Of a DNA stretch of 64,000 bases, positions 3,493 to 63,500 are shown in pieces. Positions within the stretch are counted from its first letter, which is position 1. Each line of letters opens with the position of its first letter. Source of the DNA: an uncultured Candidatus Saccharibacteria bacterium (lineage in GTDB: Bacteria > Patescibacteriota > Minisyncoccia > Phycocordibacterales > Zambryskibacteraceae); NCBI GenBank assembly GCA_964348525.1, contig CAYGCY010000002.1:9726-73725 (forward strand), given 5' to 3'. Made by a program: the position numbers and the translations under genes. The notes beneath the pieces are model-generated. The model was not told the origin of the DNA. It saw nothing but the letters and a program-made list of their open reading frames with translations, and searched no databases.

Positions 3493-3936
3493 ATGAGAAT
3501 TATCCTTTTGAAAGACGTCCCCAAGGTGGGAAGAAAATTTGAGGTAAAAGAAGTATCTGATGGATATGCAAATAATTTGTTATTTCCTAGAGGTTTAGCA
3601 GAAATGGCGACTCCACAAGCCCTGGTAAAACTACATAAAGAAATTGAGGCGAGCGTTGAATCAAAAAAAATTGAACTAGATCTTCTTCATAAAAATTTTA
3701 ATACACTAAAAAATACAGAAGTAAAACTTATTAAGCCAGCTAATGAAGAAGGGCATCTTTTTGCAGGAGTAAAAGAAATTGAAATAAAAAATGCTATTGA
3801 AACACAATTAGGAATTACTCTGCCAAAAGATTTTATAGATTTGGAACATCCATTAAAAACTGTGGGGGAACATTCAGTAAACATTAAATCGGGAAATATA
3901 AAAGGAACAATAAAAATAATTATTGAAACCGAATAA
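3493..3936 (+). CDS. rplI: Ribosomal protein L9
   Basis: MRIILLKDVPKVGRKFEVKEVSDGYANNLLFPRGLA, a typical L9 N-terminus. Confidence 0.9.
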   Translation: MRIILLKDVPKVGRKFEVKEVSDGYANNLLFPRGLAEMATPQALVKLHKEIEASVESKKIELDLLHKNFNTLKNTEVKLIKPANEEGHLFAGVKEIEIKNAIETQLGITLPKDFIDLEHPLKTVGEHSVNIKSGNIKGTIKIIIETE

Positions 3937-3941
3937 CAAAG

Positions 3942-3970
3942 CCGGCGCACCCCCGTTCAGGGCGCGCCGG
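3942..3970. terminator. GC-rich hairpin between rplI and a small convergent ORF
   Basis: ccggcgc...gcgccgg 7-bp stem with a 15-nt loop. Weak T-run. Confidence 0.4.
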
Positions 3971-3989
3971 TAAATTTGAGCCTCTAGTG

Positions 3990-4226
3990 CTACCCATGTT
4001 TTTCAACGTGAGAATCGTAGAGTTCTCGTTTGATACGTGCATGACAGCGCGGGCACTCTGTGCAACATGGCGCTACGTGTATGACCTCTTGGGAGCCAAC
4101 ATGACAGGCACAGTTGCAGAGTTCGTCATTTGTGACGACCAGTGCATGGTTTATGTGCCCACATGCATAGCATGTAAACGATGTGCCCAAATCACGTCCG
4201 CACCTCTCACAGCGATTGTGCAACAT
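3990..4226 (-). CDS. Small Cys-rich zinc-ribbon-like protein (GC-rich cassette). Start chosen at the internal ATG with a GGAGGG SD.
   Basis: Four CxxC-type pairs (CERCGRD, CYACGH, CNCACH, CCTECPRCH). SD GGAGGG 7 nt upstream of ATG at 4224-4226. The region is about 50% GC against an AT-rich backbone. An antisense 87-aa ORF on the plus strand is the alternative. Confidence 0.4.
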   Translation of the reverse strand: MLHNRCERCGRDLGTSFTCYACGHINHALVVTNDELCNCACHVGSQEVIHVAPCCTECPRCHARIKRELYDSHVEKHG

Positions 4227-4273
4227 GGCAAAACCCTCCATAGCGGGTAATTTCTATATCAAATTTATCACAC

Positions 4274-4552
4274 CTACTGAGGAATTACATCAAAAACTTT
4301 CTTTGATTTTGATTCACCATTGAAATGAGTTTTACGGGTTGTTCGAAGCTCTAGTTTTCCGGAGGCTAGTGCAAAAAGAGTTCTGTCAGAGCCCATACCT
4401 ACATTTTGTCCTGGGAGAATGTGGGTGCCTCTTTGACGTACCAAAATAGAGCCAGTTTTAACAACGTCTCCTGGGGTTACCTTGATTCCTAGGTATTTAG
4501 GATTTGAATCTCGACCGTTTTTTGTTGTACCTGCGGCTTTCTTATGTGCCAT
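4274..4552 (-). CDS. rpmA: Ribosomal protein L27
   Basis: [24 protein letters not shown], a canonical L27 N-terminus. Confidence 0.9.
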
Positions 4553-46610: not shown

Positions 46611-47153
46611 TCAGCCCTTAGCTAGCCTCAACACTTCGACCACCAGAGAGTCGATGCTTGAACCGTCTTCGTTGTACACGACAGTATGATTCTTCGTACC
46701 TTCCGGAAATTCCTCGAATGCTTCCGCACACATGTTGTGAATCTTCGTGGCGATTTCCGGTGTATGGAGAAGATGTCCTTCCCGTGGAGCCGAAAGACGC
46801 GCTACAGCAGTTTCCGGTGCCGAACGCACCTCAACCCACTGCACATCAACTTTCTGCTCGGCACAGAAAGCTTCCATCTGTGAGCGGACTGAGTGATATG
46901 GATAAACTTCATCCATGATCACAATCGAAGCCCCACTATCAAACTTGTAAAGGGCTTCTTTCAGTGCGTCCTGACAATAAAGCGACCTCACTTCTGGGGG
47001 GTCGACTTCGTCAGTCACCTTTTTTGGGTCAGCCCTGATTCGTTTGTGATGGTCAACATCAACGCGCGTTGCCCACCCCAACTCGTGCATCCGCTTACAA
47101 ATCGTCGTTTTGCCTGAGCCAGGCAAACCGGCCAGCAGTATGAGCGTGTTCAC
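46611..47153 (-). CDS. P-loop kinase / AAA_33-like NTPase (GC-rich island)
   Basis: Walker A GLPGSGKTT, Walker B IVIMDEV. GTG start with AAGGAGA SD. About 52% GC. Confidence 0.6.
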   Translation of the reverse strand: MNTLILLAGLPGSGKTTICKRMHELGWATRVDVDHHKRIRADPKKVTDEVDPPEVRSLYCQDALKEALYKFDSGASIVIMDEVYPYHSVRSQMEAFCAEQKVDVQWVEVRSAPETAVARLSAPREGHLLHTPEIATKIHNMCAEAFEEFPEGTKNHTVVYNEDGSSIDSLVVEVLRLAKG

Positions 47154-47406: not shown

Positions 47407-48675
47407 TTATTCAACAACAACTTTGTGGTAAGTCTTCTTCCCTTTTCTCAAAAGAACCGTGGAGTCGTCCGTCACAAACTGACTCAACGAGACTCCGGTA
47501 TCCGTTACGGCCTTGTTGCCGATGTAAATACCGCCGGCTCTCACGAGCTTTGCCGCTTCTGTTTTTGACGTGGAGAAGCCCACCCTAACGAGAACTTCGG
47601 TGAGCTTCAACCCGTCTATTTCAGACTTGGTGAAAGTGGTACTCGGAACATGCGACAGGTCCCCACCTTCAGCACCAAACAACCCTCTTGATGAAGCTTG
47701 GGCTTTTTTCGCCTCTTCTTCACCGTGAGTGATTTTGGTTGCCTCAAAAGCGAGGGCCTCCTTTGCTCCTCGCAAATGGTGTCCGCCTTGTTCGCAGAGC
47801 TTGGCGATTTCTTCCAATGGCAGAAAGGTGAAGAGTTTCAGGAACTTTTCCACATCTCTGTCATCGGAATTAATCCAGTACTGGTAGTACTCGAAGGGCG
47901 AAGTCTTCGCCGCATCAAGCCAAATCGCACCAGACTCCGTCTTGCCCATCTTCTGTCCACGCGCAGTGGTGAGAAGCGGGAACGTCAAGCCGTGGGAATT
48001 TCCTTGCGTCACTTTCTTGATGAGGTCGATGCCCGCAAGGATGTTGCTCCACTGGTCGTCACCACCCATTTGCACCGTACACCCGTGCTTTTCGTACAAG
48101 ACGAGGAAATCATACGCCTGAAGCAACTGGTAGTTGAACTCAATGAAGGACAAGCCTTCATCTCTGTCCAGTCTCATCCTGTATGCTTCAGCGCGAATCA
48201 TCTCGTTCACCTTGAAGAATCGCCCGACGTCCCTCAAAAACTCGATGTAGTTGAGGGGTAACAACCAGTCCGCATTGTTCAAAAACAATCCAACGCCGTC
48301 ACCGAAAGACAAGTACCTCTTGAGTTGCTCCAAAAGAAGACGACCGTTTTTCGCGATGTCTTCTTTTGAAAGCATTTGTCTCATCTGCGTCTTCCCGCTC
48401 GGATCCCCAATCATGGTGGTTCCACCACCAATGATTGCAATGGGCATGTGACCAGCCCTTTGCAGATGGGTCATTGCCATAATCGGCAACAGATGTCCAA
48501 CGTGCATGCTGTCTGCAGTTGGATCGAAGCCGACATAGAACGTGACCTTCCCCGTGTCTAACAGGGATTCAAGCGACAAGGTCTTCACCAGCGTGTGCCG
48601 GTCAAAAACCTCGACAGGCGCTGTCTCCTGCTTGATGAAACCCCTGCCCTTCAGTTCTTCGTATACGTGTGACAT
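47407..48675 (-). CDS. tyrS: Tyrosyl-tRNA synthetase (compositionally atypical, about 52% GC)
   Basis: HIGH-type motif (HVGH) and KMGKT (KMSKS-type), C-terminal S4-like domain. GC far above the other aaRS genes here. Confidence 0.9.
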   Translation of the reverse strand: MSHVYEELKGRGFIKQETAPVEVFDRHTLVKTLSLESLLDTGKVTFYVGFDPTADSMHVGHLLPIMAMTHLQRAGHMPIAIIGGGTTMIGDPSGKTQMRQMLSKEDIAKNGRLLLEQLKRYLSFGDGVGLFLNNADWLLPLNYIEFLRDVGRFFKVNEMIRAEAYRMRLDRDEGLSFIEFNYQLLQAYDFLVLYEKHGCTVQMGGDDQWSNILAGIDLIKKVTQGNSHGLTFPLLTTARGQKMGKTESGAIWLDAAKTSPFEYYQYWINSDDRDVEKFLKLFTFLPLEEIAKLCEQGGHHLRGAKEALAFEATKITHGEEEAKKAQASSRGLFGAEGGDLSHVPSTTFTKSEIDGLKLTEVLVRVGFSTSKTEAAKLVRAGGIYIGNKAVTDTGVSLSQFVTDDSTVLLRKGKKTYHKVVVE

Positions 48676-50447: not shown

Positions 50448-50518
50448 GTGGACCTATCGGGAATCGCACCCGAGCTTCGTCAATGCGAATGACGCGTCGT
50501 GCTACTAGACTATAGGCC
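50448..50518 (-). tRNA. tRNA-Ala-like (anticodon CGC), non-canonical D- and T-loops
   Basis: Cloverleaf with G3:U70, A73, anticodon loop UUCGCAU. 3-bp D-stem without G18/G19. T-loop UGCGAUU (G at position 55). Confidence 0.45.
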
Positions 50519-50530
50519 CATTTCTCTTCG

Positions 50531-50601
50531 GTGGACTCACGGGGAATCGGACCCCGACCTCATCCATGCCATGGATGCGTAATACCATTTTACTATGAGC
50601 C
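50531..50601 (-). tRNA. tRNA-Ala (GGC)
   Basis: G3:U70, A73, anticodon loop AUGGCAU. D-loop has GG. T-loop UCCGAUU. Confidence 0.55.
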
Positions 50602-50673
50602 CGTCGTACTGGTATTTTACGGAAAATAACCACAGCTTCAAATAAGATTATTTTTAGGATAAGATGTTGTCTT

Positions 50674-50821
50674 CGGACCTTTAGCTTAGTTGTAGCGTCT
50701 CGTGAAAAGCAACCAGCTGTAGGGTTTCGTAAAATGTTGCTCATGCACGGGCCTTGGCTTAGTTGTAGCGTCTCGTGAAAAGCAACTGACTTCAGAGTTT
50801 TGTAAAATATTGTTCGTGTAC
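50674..50821 (+). repeat. Two tandem about 74-nt degenerate tRNA-like units sharing the 5' 28 nt of the downstream tRNA-Ala
   Basis: Units at 50674-50747 and 50748-50821 begin GG(A/G)CCTT(T)(A/G)GCTTAGTTGTAGCGTCTCGTG like the tRNA-Ala 5' half, but do not fold into a cloverleaf. Confidence 0.4.
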
Positions 50822-50897
50822 GGGCCCTTAGCTTAGCTGGTAGAGCGCCTCATTTGCAATGAGGAGGTCAGCGGTTCGAATCCGCTAGGGTCCACCA
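50822..50897 (+). tRNA. tRNA-Ala (TGC), CCA encoded
   Basis: GGGCCCTTAGCTTAGCTGGTAGAGCGCCTCATTTGCAATGAGGAGGTCAGCGGTTCGAATCCGCTAGGGTCCACCA. G3:U70, A73. Confidence 0.85.
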
Positions 50898-52286: not shown

Positions 52287-53507
52287 TTATAATTTCCTAA
52301 GACTCCTGTGGTAGCCGATGGCAAAACGATGCGCCTCGCTATTGGCGAGGAGAATTTCCTGTTTTCTTCCTTTTACCACTTCATTATTCCCTATTACATC
52401 TTTTGCTTTGTGCTTTTCATCCTTTACCACGGAACATGCTTCTATATTTAGACCAGCACTTTCTAAAACTGTCTTTGCAGTGTTTATTTGTGCAGTGGAA
52501 CCATCCACTACTATCAAGTCGGGCATTGTCCATTCAGTGTGCTTAAAGCGCCTAGTTAAGATTTCTTTCAAATTGACTGTGTCATTTACCCTGTCCTTAC
52601 CTGCTCCACGAATCTTGAATTTTCTATAATCATTTTTTTTGGCTTCACCGTCTTCTACTACCGTCATTACGCCTACTGTATTAGTGCCGGAAATATGGGC
52701 GACATCGTATGCCTCAATACGAAAAGCTTTAGACCGTTGGCTCGAAGCTATTAGTTGTTCGTGTTTTAGGAGAGAAACATCGCGGATATGCTCTAAAGCA
52801 AATATTTGTTTCTTGATTATTTGCGCCTTTTCAAAATTTTTGGCTTTAGCTAGAGACATCATTTCTTTTTTAAGAGAATTGACCAACATTCTTTTTTTAC
52901 CAGAAAAAAATAAAGAAATGTGCCTTATGGTTTTTGCGTATTCATTTTTTGATATTTTACCTATACACACTCCAGGGCAAAGACCGATTTGATAATTAAA
53001 ACATCCTCGCTTTGCATTTAATTCACACCTATCTCTATACGGAAACATTTTTCTAATTATTTTTAATGCTTCTTTTAATTGGCTCCCGTTAGTAAAGGGG
53101 CCGAAAACAGCTTTAGGCTTTAAGCTAGAGGCTTTAAGTTTCAACTCTCGCTCACGAACAATTAAAACCTTTGGGAAAACTTCTTTCGTAATTACAACGT
53201 AGTTAAAACTTTTATCATCTTTGTCCCTACTATTTCCGCTCGGCTGTAAACGCTTTATTTCTGCCGCTTCCAAAATCAATGCCTCCAAAACTGAATCGGT
53301 TGTTTTATAGGAAATAGAATCTGCAGACACAATCATTGATACAATTTTCGAACCACGCGTTAAGAGAAGGTCATTAGAAAAATAACTTTTCACCCTGTCT
53401 TTCAAGGATGTGGCTTTCCCTACATACAAAACTTCCCTACCTTTTTTGAAGTAGTAAACCCCTGGGCTATCGGGAAATTTGTATTTTTTAAAATCTTGAC
53501 TAACCAT
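52287..53507 (-). CDS. uvrC: Excinuclease ABC subunit C, short form (406 aa)
   Basis: N-terminal GIY-YIG (GVYYFKKGREVLYVGKATSLKDRVKSYF). C-terminal HhH region appears absent. Confidence 0.8.
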   Translation of the reverse strand: MVSQDFKKYKFPDSPGVYYFKKGREVLYVGKATSLKDRVKSYFSNDLLLTRGSKIVSMIVSADSISYKTTDSVLEALILEAAEIKRLQPSGNSRDKDDKSFNYVVITKEVFPKVLIVRERELKLKASSLKPKAVFGPFTNGSQLKEALKIIRKMFPYRDRCELNAKRGCFNYQIGLCPGVCIGKISKNEYAKTIRHISLFFSGKKRMLVNSLKKEMMSLAKAKNFEKAQIIKKQIFALEHIRDVSLLKHEQLIASSQRSKAFRIEAYDVAHISGTNTVGVMTVVEDGEAKKNDYRKFKIRGAGKDRVNDTVNLKEILTRRFKHTEWTMPDLIVVDGSTAQINTAKTVLESAGLNIEACSVVKDEKHKAKDVIGNNEVVKGRKQEILLANSEAHRFAIGYHRSLRKL

Positions 53508-53566
53508 TTTTTAGATTGTAGTGTAATAAAAGAACAAGCACAAGTCGCCACACCTTCGGAGGACAC

Positions 53567-53830
53567 ATGAGTATCTTTGGGCACGACGCTTTGGAGCCTG
53601 CTCCCGCAAGCCGGTCTGGTGGGCCAACACCTCCGGAGGTGTTTGAGGGTCCAAGCGGACTTATCGGCTCGAGTATGGCAGACCTTTGTGGACAAGACAC
53701 AGGCGCTCCTCCAGCACACACGGGGGCACCTTGCCACGACTGGAGTGCCCCGCCACAGACCAAGGCTGGTTGTGATTGCCACGGCATTCCCAATTGCCCA
53801 GCTTCACACCCACCCGAATTCGGATGCTGA
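53567..53830 (+). CDS. Small Cys/Pro/His-rich protein (87 aa), GC-rich
   Basis: SD GGAGG 4 nt upstream. C-terminal CHDWSAPPQTKAGCDCHGIPNCPASHPPEFGC. Strong terminator follows. Confidence 0.4.
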   Translation: MSIFGHDALEPAPASRSGGPTPPEVFEGPSGLIGSSMADLCGQDTGAPPAHTGAPCHDWSAPPQTKAGCDCHGIPNCPASHPPEFGC

Positions 53831-53836
53831 CACCTA

Positions 53837-53877
53837 CCCCGCGAGATGTATCCACATCTCGCGGGGTTTTCTTTTTC
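53837..53877 (+). terminator. Strong rho-independent terminator
   Basis: ccccgcgagatgtatccacatctcgcggggttttcttttt. Confidence 0.85.
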
Positions 53878-53923
53878 CCTATTCGGAGTTATAAATTCAA
53901 AAGACTCGCACAAGGAGATTGCC

Positions 53924-54124
53924 ATGAGTATCAGTGGTGAGGAAATGGAAGTAATGGGCAGAGCCTCGATACTTCTGGACAAGCTCAAGAAAAGGGGCTT
54001 GGACCCTGAAGAATTTGACGAACTGCGTCGGCTTCAATCCATGTGCCCACACAATTCACGGCCTGTGGACTTCATGCACAACGGAGAAGATTGCGAAGCT
54101 TGTGGCATGCACCTCGGTACATAA
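53924..54124 (+). CDS. Small Cys-containing protein (66 aa), GC-rich
   Basis: SD AAGGAG. MSISGEEMEVMGRASILLDKLKKRGLDPEEFDELRRLQSMCPHNSRPVDFMHNGEDCEACGMHLGT. Confidence 0.4.
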   Translation: MSISGEEMEVMGRASILLDKLKKRGLDPEEFDELRRLQSMCPHNSRPVDFMHNGEDCEACGMHLGT

Positions 54125-54150
54125 AGGGGCCCCTGTGGCCCCTTTTGTTT
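54123..54150. terminator. Bidirectional terminator hairpin
   Basis: aaaggggcccctgtggccccttttgttt. Confidence 0.75.
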
Positions 54151-56758
54151 ACTTGTTTTTCTTTAGCGCTTTTTTCAAATATCTGCCCGTGTGAGTATCT
54201 GTAGTAGCCACGTTTTCAGGAGTACCTTTTGCTACTATTCGTCCCCCGCCTATTCCTCCCTCTGGCCCAACGTCTATTACCCAGTCAGCATTTTTTATAA
54301 TATCTAGATTGTGTTCAATGACCATCACGGTATTACCTTTGTCTACTAATTTTTGGATAATCTCTATGAGTTTTTTTACATCGTCATAGTGCAAGCCTAT
54401 AGTCGGTTCGTCTAAAAGATAAATAGTTTTTTGAAGATGAGGTCTATACAGCTCAGAAGATATTTTTACACGTTGAGCTTCTCCTCCAGACAAAGTGGTA
54501 GCTGATTGTCCTAATCCCAAATACCCAAGCCCCACCTCATTGAGTGTTTTCAAACGATCATAAATAGAAGGAATATCTTCAAAGAATTGAAGTGCCTCTT
54601 CTACTGTCATTTTTAGAATGTCGTAAATGTTTTTATGTTTGTATTTAACCTCCAATGTTTCTTTCGTAAATCTTTTTCCTTGGCACACATCACATGGCAC
54701 ATAAACTGTTGGCAAAAAATGCATCTCAACAGCAATCTCGCCATTACCTTGGCAGGTTTCGCAACGCCCACCTTTTACATTGAAAGAGAATCTGTTTGCT
54801 CTCCAACCACGAGCTCGAGCTTCCTCCGTTTCTGCAAATAGGTCGCGCACAAATGTCCAAGCGCCTGTATATGTGGCTGGGTTAGATCTCGGAGTTCGAC
54901 CAATTGGCGATTGGTCTATCAAAATAGAGCGCCCGAGATACTCGGTACCAGAAAACGATTCGCAATTATAAGTTTCCGCGGTGCGGTATTTTCTGTCGAA
55001 ACGAGCTTGCAGATTTTTGTGCACTACTTCGTACATAAGTGTAGATTTGCCGGAACCAGAAACACCAGTAACCACATTCAACCTGCCTAGAGGTATTTCG
55101 ACATTAACATTTTTTAAATTAAAAATATTCGCATTCTTAATCACAATCTTTCCTCTCTCTTCTGTACGACGCACTTTTGGAGTGTCTATCGCCTCTTCTC
55201 CTCTCAAATAAGAAAGAGTTCTCGACCCAGAATCATTTCTTTTTGCGGTAAGTAAATTCTCTAAATAATCCGCTACTATAATTTCTCCCCCATGTACTCC
55301 GGCTTTCGGCCCGATATCAATTAAATAGTCCGATGAGAAAATAGTGTCTTCATCATGCTCCACTACTACAATAGTGTTACCTAAATCTCGAAGCGAAAGA
55401 AGTGTTTTTATAAGCCGGTCATTGTCTCTTGAGTGCAAGCCTATAGTAGGTTCATCGAGCACATAAAGGGCCCCCACGAGCCCAGAACCGAGCTGGGAGG
55501 CGAGTCTAATTCTTTGCGCTTCTCCACCCGAAAGCGTGTGGGCACGTCTGTTTAGGCTCAAATATTCGATGCCGACATTTAGCATGAATTCAAGTCTAGA
55601 AGAGATTTCTTTTACTATCACAGTAGAAATACTTTTCTCTCGTTCTGTTAATTTTGCTTTTGAAATAAACTCAAAAGCATCTTCAATACTTTGCGAAGTA
55701 AACTCCACAATATTTTTACCGTCTACAAAAATATGAAGAGCTTCTTCGCGAAGACGGGCTCCTTTACATTTTGGGCATGGGTCATCACTAAAAAAATGTT
55801 TAGTCCCTAAGCCGTTGCATTCAGGACATGCACCATATGGAGAGTTGAAAGAAAAAAGTCTTGGCTCAATCTCAGGATATGAGTAACCATCGTGAGGGCA
55901 TGAAAATCTAGAAGACATAAGAATGTCATCTTTTTCGCCGAAAGACAAAACGACCAGCCCTTCAGACTCTTGAATAGATTTTTCAATTGCGTCAGACAGT
56001 CTTTCTCCGGCATCTTTTTTTGAATCCTTTAATTTAAAATCTGTTAGAGATATTGAGTCAATCAAAACATCTATTGAATGCTTTTTGTTTTTATCTAGAA
56101 TTATTTGCTCACGAAGCTTCTTTTTTGTGCCGTCCACACGAACCTCAGAAAAACCTTTTCCCGATAAGTCGTATAAAAGCTGGTAATACTCACCTTTTCT
56201 TCCACGCACCACGGGCGCATAAACTTCGACAAAACCCATTTCGTGAACGAGCTTCCCTTTTTTATTTGTTTTTTTGCCAAGCTTATTTGCTCTTTCTGTG
56301 ATTTTACTCAGCGCAAATTTTTTTATTTCATCAAAAGAGAGTTTGGAAATTTCTCTACCACAAACCAAACAATGTGGATGGCCAATGCGTGCATACAGAA
56401 TTCTCAAATAATCATAAATTTCTGTAATAGTGGCAACAGTTGAGCGAGGATTGTTTGAACGCGATTTTTGGTCTATTGAAATTGCGGGCGAAAGACCTGT
56501 GATTTCGTCTACATCCGGCTTCTGCATTGTGTTTAAAAACTGCCTTGCATATGAAGAAAGCGATTCAACATATCTGCGCTGACCTTCTGCGAAAATGGTG
56601 TCAAAAGCCAAGGATGATTTTCCAGAGCCAGATAGACCCGTAAAAACTACCATTTTATTCCGTGGCATCTTTACGCTGATATTTTTCAAATTATGAGTGC
56701 GGGCGCCTTTTACTGTAAGCCACTCTTGATTTTTGTTGTTTTCAGAGGTTTTTGACAT
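54149..56758 (-). CDS. uvrA: Excinuclease ABC subunit A
   Basis: Two ABC cassettes with Walker [11 protein letters not shown] and [10 protein letters not shown], zinc fingers, LSGGE signatures. Confidence 0.95.
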
Positions 56759-56892: not shown

Positions 56893-57246
56893 ATGGCTTT
56901 TGGATTAAGACAGATCACGAAGGGGTCCTGCCGTGCGATTGACCGAAGAATGTTCCCCCACCTGAAGGGCGGTCGTCTTATTGTTAAGGTAGTTCCAAAC
57001 GATGAGTTACCTGCCGAATTGCGTGGTCTGTTAAAGAATGGTGGACTCTTACTGATGGAAGAGGCTCGCATCACGCCAGATTGGGTAGAGTTCATCAAAA
57101 ATAACCCCGAAAGAGCATATATTGACTACGAGAAACGCAAGATACGACACGTGGTTCTGGCGTGTGGGCCAACCCATGGTTCGGCGATATCATTTTTGCT
57201 AGACTTGGGTCTTACAGATGCCCACCTTGAGCCCATTATTGACTGA
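56893..57246 (+). CDS. Hypothetical protein (117 aa), GC-rich cassette
   Basis: SD GGAGG 4 nt upstream. No recognised motif. Terminator follows. Confidence 0.45.
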   Translation: MAFGLRQITKGSCRAIDRRMFPHLKGGRLIVKVVPNDELPAELRGLLKNGGLLLMEEARITPDWVEFIKNNPERAYIDYEKRKIRHVVLACGPTHGSAISFLLDLGLTDAHLEPIID

Positions 57247-62876: not shown

Positions 62877-63500
62877 TTACCCTACAAAGACATCGTCATG
62901 CCCCATCAAGGTGGTGAGGCCCGTGGGCATCTTCGGAGTGGCGGAACGATCACCGACACGACGGACAGTGAACCCCGTCCTGTGCCAAGTGATAATTCTT
63001 CCCTCGTCAGAATGTGAGCCTGCAGGCTTCACGGTAATCGAATCACCGATTCGCATGATTTGCAGAATTTCCTCCACCTCGAACTCGTGCCCGTTAATCT
63101 TCTGACGAGCAAGACCTTTGAGGAGAGGCCTCTGCACTTTCTCCGAGCGCCTGATTGGCGCGTGTCGGAAAAACGAGCCGCCCTTCTTGTCATTCAAAGG
63201 CACAATCCCGTTTGGGTTGGCACTCGAAACGAGGAGAAGGGCTCGACGTTCATGCATTTCAGGAACTTCGAGAACAACCGTGTGGTCGTCGAGCTTCCTT
63301 GCAGAAGCCTCAATGACCATGTCGTTTTCCATCGTGGGAGAACTCTCGGTGCTCACAACAAGCCTCGCCGGCTGATCGCCAGGCTTCACGCTGTAGTCAC
63401 CAAGCACTCGCTCGAAGCGGGTTACCTTAATGCCGTACACCACTTCCCCGACCTCGTGACCAGCTGGGTCATGCTTGAGGCAAAAACTAAAACAGAGCAA
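62877..63500 (-). CDS. Hypothetical protein, GC-rich, start uncertain (TTG at 63500 or internal Met at 63332)
   Basis: 207-aa ORF with protein-like composition (D/E/K/G/V-rich). The opposite-strand 158-aa ORF looks like an antisense artefact. No motif recognised. Confidence 0.35.
   Translation of the reverse strand: MLCFSFCLKHDPAGHEVGEVVYGIKVTRFERVLGDYSVKPGDQPARLVVSTESSPTMENDMVIEASARKLDDHTVVLEVPEMHERRALLLVSSANPNGIVPLNDKKGGSFFRHAPIRRSEKVQRPLLKGLARQKINGHEFEVEEILQIMRIGDSITVKPAGSHSDEGRIITWHRTGFTVRRVGDRSATPKMPTGLTTLMGHDDVFVG

Follow-up and report, generated by a model that had tools for sequence, protein, structure and literature searches.

Two small genes between uvrC and uvrA in a Saccharibacteria genome encode acidic candidate metal-binding proteins, one of which shares its Cys/His knuckle with a phage protein family

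In a 64 kb stretch of DNA from an uncultured Candidatus Saccharibacteria bacterium (referred to as a whole as the window), two small plus-strand open reading frames (ORFs), ORF1 and ORF2, lie in the spacer between uvrC and uvrA. Judged by their sequences, both are real, separately transcribed, protein-coding genes. We consider it slightly better than an even chance that they encode small acidic cytoplasmic metal proteins, acquired horizontally and acting in accessory or redox roles. The original prediction for this locus, made from the letters of the window, had described two small genes with their own Shine-Dalgarno sites and terminators between uvrC and uvrA, and this description holds: the signals of both genes have been located and are conserved. 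Among the natures it proposed for the products, a small metal-binding protein is the best-fitting reading, since the ligand-like Cys and His positions are invariant among the homologs compared.

ORF length alone is not significant here, all six frames being open for 54-175 codons in this GC-rich stretch; it is because of their conservation and substitution pattern that we take ORF1 and ORF2 to be genuine genes. The relatives are a handful of metagenomic contigs, standing for four diverged lineages. The order uvrC-ORF1-ORF2-uvrA is present in L001-L003, L005-L006 and L009, while two short contigs show part of it: L015 has uvrC, ORF1 and the first part of ORF2, within which it ends, and L004 starts within the ORF1 terminator and shows ORF2 and uvrA only. 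UvrC of the window is 67-69% identical to that of L001 or L009, with saturation at the synonymous sites. Across the four lineages, ORF1 and ORF2 are the sole frames to stay open, and substitutions between lineages fall mostly at the third codon positions of these two frames. The ratio of nonsynonymous to synonymous differences per site (pN/pS, Nei-Gojobori method) is 0.17-0.37 for ORF1 (Fisher p 1e-8 to 1e-14) and 0.19-0.24 for ORF2, with no stops in either; over both ORFs, the Fisher p ranges from 1e-8 to 1e-16. Four of the five alternative frames have ratios of about 0.8-2.8 or contain stops. The wobble-matched antisense frame also gives a low ratio (0.23-0.46); it is interrupted in L001 and is not open in every lineage. 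Two minus-strand ORFs, of 120 and 162 aa, were rejected as genes, both being closed in the relatives and the coding signal being that of the plus frame. Start codons and Shine-Dalgarno sites are conserved among the relatives. The ratios of 0.17-0.37 in the proposed frames thus argue for a translated region, as had been supposed, and the pair appears to have been held under purifying selection since its acquisition, across saturated synonymous divergence.

The uvrC gene (52287-53507, minus strand) and the uvrA gene (54149-56758, minus strand) leave 641 bp between the start of the former and the end of the latter, and both plus-strand ORFs lie inside this spacer. The identities of uvrC, uvrA and uvrB were confirmed by Pfam, and all three are on the minus strand. 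The GC content of the island formed by ORF1 and ORF2 is 0.52-0.625, compared to 0.40 for the whole window, in agreement with the earlier description of both genes as GC-rich. The features of the spacer are as follows.

53508..53566, no strand assigned: divergent control region, 59 bp from the uvrC start (53507, minus strand) to the ORF1 start
53567..53830, plus strand: ORF1, 87 aa, acidic, rich in Pro, Gly, Ala and Ser
53836..53877, plus strand: ORF1 intrinsic terminator, with a 14-bp perfect GC-rich stem, a 4-nt loop and a T-run
53887..53923, plus strand: ORF2 upstream block, GAGTTATAAAT..AAAAGAC..GCACAAGGAG, conserved and AT-rich
53924..54124, plus strand: ORF2, 66 aa, acidic, bearing CPHN...CEAC
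54123..54155, plus strand: ORF2 intrinsic terminator, with a 9-bp GC stem, a 5-nt loop and a T-run

The control region includes a conserved block, TTTAGATTGTA, which is kept in the window, L001 and L009. It also contains a plus-strand -10-like box, TGTAAT (53522-53527), 5′ of ORF1, and direct reading of the sequence places the ORF1 Shine-Dalgarno site, GGAGG, at 53558-53562. Because a consensus scan of the plus strand gave no canonical sigma-70 promoter, we infer the promoter of ORF1 rather than recognize it. The ORF1 terminator hairpin (53836-53867) has a predicted free energy of -27.3 kcal/mol (z -9.4) and is kept in L001, L009 and L015, with differences at some stem positions. The ORF2 upstream block is nearly invariant in the window, L001, L004, L009 and L015; it carries a -10-like TATAAAT (53890-53896) and the Shine-Dalgarno site AAGGAG (53912-53917) and would act as the ORF2 promoter. 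Other gene callers start ORF2 at an upstream ATG (53846), giving a 92-aa product that begins inside the ORF1 terminator; as this extension is not conserved, we take the ATG at 53924 to be the start. The ORF2 terminator hairpin (54123-54145), with a predicted free energy of -17 kcal/mol (z -2.95) on the plus strand and -18.1 kcal/mol on the minus strand, is kept in L001 and L009, where its loop differs. Since it begins 3 nt past the stop codon of the convergent uvrA gene (54149-54151), this one hairpin probably serves both ORF2 and uvrA. We propose that ORF1 and ORF2 would each form a transcription unit of its own, from a -10-like box through a Shine-Dalgarno site to an intrinsic terminator.

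The 66-aa ORF2 product does carry the CPHN...CEAC pair that had been pointed out. The pair forms a knuckle of the type C-x-H-x13-C-x2-C, with the ligand order CHCC (C41, H43, C57 and C60). All four residues are invariant in four Saccharibacteria sequences and 52 phage relatives (alignments A4, A5 and A6), and on the alignments these four conserved candidate ligands are arranged as two putative zinc knuckles. In the AlphaFold (AF2) model of ORF2, which is of moderate confidence (predicted local distance difference test score, pLDDT, 75), a short beta-knuckle comes after two helices (residues 5-23 and 28-38), about 34 of the 66 residues being helical. Short strands (50-51 and 56-57) surround C57/C60, and C41-H43 lie in coil just before them. 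ORF2 and its orthologues had no significant match to a curated family in Pfam, NCBIfam, PHROGs or PADLOC; ORF2 matched no zinc finger at E up to 10, and a sequence search of the PDB gave no match. We place it in an as yet uncurated family of knuckle proteins of the CHCC type.

The phage members of this family were found by a scan of viral contigs and then a profile search, giving about 50 clusters (P0006-P0059; loci L008 and L010-L014). They are 68-71 aa long (referred to below as the 68-aa family) and share the sequence ...ELQxMCPHN-x5-F-x6-CPYCGKKF. Alignment of a Saccharibacteria-only profile with the phage profile by hhalign gave a probability of 97.6% and an E-value of 4.4e-12 over ORF2 residues 31-65. 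In every locus examined, the phage gene has the gene for DNA polymerase III alpha upstream and nrdD-nrdG closely downstream; nrdD is 5 nt away in L010-L014, and one glutaredoxin-like gene intervenes in L008. Individual Pfam scans of the phage relatives gave weak matches to Zn_ribbon_3 (50/52), zf-CHCC (41/52) and Rieske (12/52), all under the curated cut-offs (27 bits for the zinc-finger matches). The profile search for zinc ribbons that the original prediction suggested thus left ORF2 itself unmatched, with its phage relatives matching weakly, below threshold. Matches of the phage family to SbcC/LmuB were not significant and were due to a coiled coil and a CPxCG motif, and GenBank phages yielded no relative of the 68-aa family.

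The phage contigs are AT-rich and reach 183-190 kb (189.5 kb for L010). Their genes (324-9797 in L010; also L011-L013) contain 1-12 in-frame TAG codons and end in TAA or TGA, from which we conclude that TAG is recoded as sense in these phages. Next after the nrdD-nrdG operon comes a gene of the formate/nitrite transporter family, and in L012 and L013 nrdD was called as two pieces.

The ORF1 product had been described as ending with six Cys plus His in a Pro-rich context. The ending, ...CHDWSAPPQTKAGCDCHGIPNCPASHPPEFGC, is as described in the window, but only four of the six Cys are conserved, together with H72 and H81. In the four-lineage alignment, a conserved N-terminal motif, TP(P/I)EVFE(G/R)PSGLIG(S/A)SM..L.GQD, is followed by a Pro-rich linker, variable in sequence and length, and then by the C-terminal cluster C69-x-C71-H72-G-x3-C77-P-A-S-H81-x-P-...-G-C87. 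C69, C71, H72, C77, H81 and C87 are invariant in the four lineages; C41 and C56 are missing in L009 and L015, which leaves four Cys and two His as the conserved set instead of six Cys. The check on Cys conservation thus came out in favour of both genes, with all of the ORF2 ligands invariant and 4/6 of the ORF1 Cys kept. In L015, ORF1 continues for four residues past the last Cys, and a Cys at the very C-terminus is therefore not required. ORF1 is predicted to be intrinsically disordered, its AF2 model being devoid of secondary structure at a pLDDT of 49. Pro, Gly, Ala or Ser make up 44-52% of its residues, and a hydrophobic segment is absent. The isoelectric point (pI) of the window form is 4.7, and all variants have a pI of 4.5-5.4 and a negative grand average of hydropathy. 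A double-glycine leader at the GLIGS of ORF1 was considered and rejected by inspection, its hydrophobic positions being out of register.

ORF1 matched no Pfam, NCBIfam or PHROGs family at E up to 10, no PADLOC family and no PDB sequence, and its orthologue P0060 is likewise without a family. When 1.84 billion representative proteins were searched in full by HMMER with the profile of ORF1, the matches were orthologues only, which form three sequence clusters, plus a spurious repeat protein (P0061). Scans of JGI metagenomes with the ORF1 and ORF2 profiles gave no new true relatives; L017, which matches by chance at LDPDEFDEL and lacks the Cys motif, was discarded. In viral contigs, neither the profile nor a degenerate DNA pattern for CxCHG...CPASH detected an ORF1 relative. 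ORF1 is a lineage-restricted orphan, with relatives in a few sister lineages only.

The GC content at third codon positions (GC3) is 0.50 for ORF1 and 0.54 for ORF2, compared to 0.34 +/- 0.07 for 55 ORFs of the window, and both genes are GC3 outliers in the sister lineages too. Given this difference, the pair was probably acquired horizontally by the ancestor of a narrow Saccharibacteria clade. The AT-rich phages, whose relatives of ORF2 have a GC3 of 0.19, are not the donors. Sliding identity reveals a mosaic. L001 resembles L009 (75-97%) through uvrC and from the first terminator onward. Between the uvrC start codon and about codon 50 of ORF1 (window 53482-53716), L001 is 81-93% identical to the window vs. 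38-73% to L009. Recombination between lineages has thus exchanged a segment of ~250-350 bp that comprises the control region along with the 5′ two-thirds of ORF1. The mosaic accounts for the low synonymous divergence between the window and L001 in the N-terminal half of ORF1 (pS 0.39 vs. 0.79, p = 0.004) and for the existence of two ORF1 allele classes, a long one with six Cys (window and L001) and a short one with four (L009 and L015). In L009, what is left of a uvrA 3′ end of the window type (3830-3985) stands beside a different, complete uvrA 3′ end (3994-4362); either this duplication or scar of recombination is real, or the Logan contig is an assembly chimera.

The uvr neighbourhood has some further peculiarities. 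On the minus strand of the control region, uvrC has a conserved -10-like box, TACAAT (53515-53520), that ends just 7 nt upstream of the ATG, with no Shine-Dalgarno site in between, which suggests that the uvrC mRNA is leaderless. UvrC itself is short (406 aa), and Pfam at E up to 1e-5 matches its RNase H-like endonuclease domain alone. The original prediction noted that the two small genes interrupt an otherwise contiguous uvrC-uvrA-uvrB arrangement. This is true, and a third, unrelated plus-strand ORF of 117 aa (window 56893-57246; GC3 0.49 vs. 0.34) lies between uvrA and uvrB; it has no match in Pfam, NCBIfam, PHROGs or the PDB. The uvr cluster is thus broken twice by opposite-strand genes of atypical composition. 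Host genes otherwise have a GC3 of about 0.33, and three more outliers, all on the minus strand, are the tyrosyl-tRNA synthetase gene (47407-48675; 0.62), an AAA_33 kinase-like gene (46611-47153; 0.54) and a 207-aa ORF without a family (62877-63500; 0.61); these three are probably horizontal acquisitions. Three tRNA-Ala genes (anticodons CGC, GGC and TGC), two on the minus and one on the plus strand, lie within 450 bp (window 50448-50897).

We propose that ORF1 and ORF2 would be small soluble cytoplasmic proteins, each with one metal centre held by its invariant Cys and His residues. ORF2 would bind its metal through the CHCC knuckle that follows a predicted two-helix hairpin. The C-terminal Cys4His2 cluster of ORF1, CxCHG-x3-CPASH-x5-12-C, would fold only around a metal. 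Zn2+, the default expectation, would be the most likely metal, with Fe or an Fe-S cluster as possibilities. The two proteins may act through protein-protein contacts as accessory or redox factors of DNA or nucleotide metabolism; this role is suggested by the neighbourhood, which is uvr here and DNA polymerase III and nrdDG in the phages. A role in DNA binding or as a transcription factor is disfavoured, since both proteins are acidic and lack a DNA-binding fold.

Several points weigh against this proposal. The functional link is one of neighbourhood only, and the synteny shared by four related lineages may reflect vertical inheritance. The curated zinc-finger, ferredoxin and other families are all below threshold for ORF1 and ORF2, and no solved structure or predicted viral structure is similar to the ORF2 model. 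The homology between ORF2 and the phage family spans just about 34 residues around the ligands, and the Saccharibacteria profile is shallow (effective number of sequences, Neff, 1.3), so that there is a small chance that the two converged on a metal-binding motif. The phage loci have no ORF1-like neighbour, and ORF1 and ORF2 therefore need not work together. The part of the genome that was inspected is the 64 kb of the window, in which the ORF annotation begins at roughly 23 kb. Literature searches gave nothing relevant. As it stands, this is a well-supported pair of small proteins, with no evidence of a new mechanism.

The analysis does define two uncurated small-protein families, one of ORF1 and one of CHCC-knuckle proteins comprising ORF2 and its phage relatives. 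Saccharibacteria genomes are tiny, and the maintenance of two foreign-looking small genes under purifying selection in such a genome suggests that they have a useful role. If the phage link reflects function, it would point to a so far unrecognized protein that assists anaerobic ribonucleotide reduction or DNA repair.

A number of other explanations can be weighed against the reading of ORF1 and ORF2 as zinc-binding accessory proteins. We consider it unlikely that they are miniature iron or iron-sulfur redox carriers, passing electrons to partners such as NrdG/NrdD in phages, although several features recall such proteins. The three Cys and one His of ORF2 and its phage relatives are arranged in a Rieske-like CPH...CP(Y)C motif, and the sub-threshold Rieske matches in 12/52 of the phage relatives reach a best E-value of 1e-3. 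The CxCHG of ORF1 resembles Rieske box II, and its CPASH resembles the CDGSH motif, CxC-x5-C-x3-H recalling the CDGSH pattern, CxC-x8-C-x3-H. All variants are strongly acidic, as in rubredoxins and ferredoxins, and the phage gene is operonic with nrdD-nrdG and adjoins the glutaredoxin-like gene in L008. However, the Rieske and zf-CHCC matches all lie below their cut-offs and occur in the phage relatives only, and zf-CDGSH is unmatched even at E up to 10. The proteins are also too small for a Rieske fold, and their ligand spacings differ from those of both motifs. A proposal in which ORF2 and its phage relatives would be a new miniature 3Cys-1His class of Fe or Fe-S proteins, serving as dedicated electron donors or assembly factors of NrdD/NrdG or of other enzymes of DNA metabolism, with the disordered Cys4His2 protein ORF1 as a partner for metal delivery or buffering in Saccharibacteria, is a long shot.

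It is improbable that the two genes encode small regulators, for example DNA-damage-responsive transcription factors or anti-sigma factors of the adjacent uvr genes. The divergent arrangement of ORF1 and uvrC, whose promoters overlap in a highly conserved space of just 59 bp, would suit such a role, and zinc knuckles are frequent in small regulators. Both proteins are acidic, however, and neither matches a helix-turn-helix or other DNA-binding family or fold; moreover, the phage relatives lie in a nucleotide-metabolism operon and not in regulatory positions.

ORF1 could also be viewed as the precursor of a ribosomally synthesized and post-translationally modified peptide (RiPP), with a leader, a variable segment and a Cys-rich core acted on by an enzyme encoded elsewhere, and ORF2 as its accessory or recognition protein. 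The conserved N-terminal motif, variable linker, Cys-rich C-terminus and predicted disorder of ORF1 are consistent with this idea, which the original prediction had also put forward, as are its very narrow taxonomic range and the two allele classes swapped by recombination; recombining allele classes are common for competition peptides. Against it, the C-terminal 'core' is, along with the N-terminal motif, the most conserved part of ORF1, and the predicted structure of ORF2 (two helices and a knuckle) is unlike a PqqD-type recognition element. The precursor and leader families (SCIFF, NHLP, Nif11 and others) are unmatched in Pfam, NCBIfam and PHROGs. The Pfam annotation covers 28 larger ORFs, at about 23-63.5 kb of the window; these are all housekeeping genes, including those for DnaK, AlaRS, LeuRS, TyrRS, YchF, Tgt and FKBP, and among them there is no maturase, radical-SAM, YcaO or LanM-like protein or peptidase-ABC exporter. 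The sole CxxxCxxC motif in window ORFs of at least 150 codons sits in an overlapping non-genic frame. In all four lineages the locus lies between uvrC and uvrA without a co-travelling enzyme, and L001, L005 and L009 share the uvrC/uvrA flanks. With neither a family match nor a maturase or exporter among the larger ORFs at about 23-63.5 kb, a RiPP-like precursor must be judged a poor prospect.

Slimmer still is the chance that the pair is cargo of a mobile or selfish element (toxin-antitoxin, anti-defence or phage remnant) inserted in the uvr cluster. Its codon composition is foreign-looking and its strand is opposite to that of most neighbouring genes; ORF2 has phage relatives, and ORF1 has undergone recombinational exchange between lineages. 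Yet no PADLOC (defence or toxin-antitoxin) or PHROG family was matched, and the locus has no convincing flanking direct or inverted repeats, no integrase and no tRNA target. The two genes do not form an operon pair, because each has its own terminator, and the stable purifying selection and the low GC3 of the phage relatives, which are not the donors, also speak against mobile cargo.

Finally, the notion that the island is a structured non-coding RNA or other untranslated element with accidental ORFs, which could appeal to its GC-richness in an AT-rich genome and to the six frames open by chance, is effectively refuted by the frame-specific purifying selection, with codon-periodic substitutions and conserved Shine-Dalgarno sites and start codons, and Rfam finds no family there, the gathering score giving four tRNAs only in the window and the best E-value in 53400-54250 being 0.59. 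No self-similarity was seen within the window.

The proposed metal proteins can be set beside several known systems. Bacterial metallothioneins have Cys-x-Cys clusters and conserved Cys that amount to well over 10% of residues; ORF1, with only four conserved Cys in 73-87 aa and no match to Metallothio_Pro or any other Pfam family, has too few to be placed among them, as had once seemed worth checking. Cys-rich RiPP precursors of the SCIFF/ranthipeptide type resemble ORF1 in their small size, their disorder, the conservation of their N-terminal part and the abundance of Cys at their C-terminus, but ORF1 is monocistronic and lies between housekeeping genes.

The likeness to the Rieske and CDGSH [2Fe-2S] proteins, which is no more than a lead, concerns the CxH and CxxC/H of ORF2 and the CxCHG and C-x3-H of ORF1. 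The Rieske motif is C-x-H-x15-17-C-x2-H in a beta-sandwich of ~100 aa, whereas ORF2 has C-x-H-x13-C-x2-C in 66 aa. Similarly, the CDGSH motif is C-x-C-x2-(S/T)-x3-P-x-C-D-G-(S/A/T)-H, whereas ORF1 has C-D-C-H-G-x3-C-P-A-S-H, with a spacing of x5 and not x8.

Zn_ribbon_3 (PF13248) and zf-CHCC (PF10276) share with ORF2 and its phage relatives an invariant Cys, His, Cys, Cys set on a C-terminal beta-knuckle. The Saccharibacteria ORF2 nevertheless matches neither family; its first ligand pair is C-x-H and not C-x2-C, and its knuckle is preceded by a conserved helix ending in (E/D)ELxxLQxxCPHN. Lastly, the phage 68-aa family differs from ORF2 in its N-terminal helices, which cannot be aligned, and in its setting: the phage genes are AT-rich and operonic with nrdD-nrdG, whereas the Saccharibacteria gene is monocistronic and lies beside ORF1 in the uvrC-uvrA spacer. 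What the two have in common is their similar length (65-71 aa) and acidity, together with the segment ELxxLQxMCPHN-x5-F-x6-C-x2-CG.

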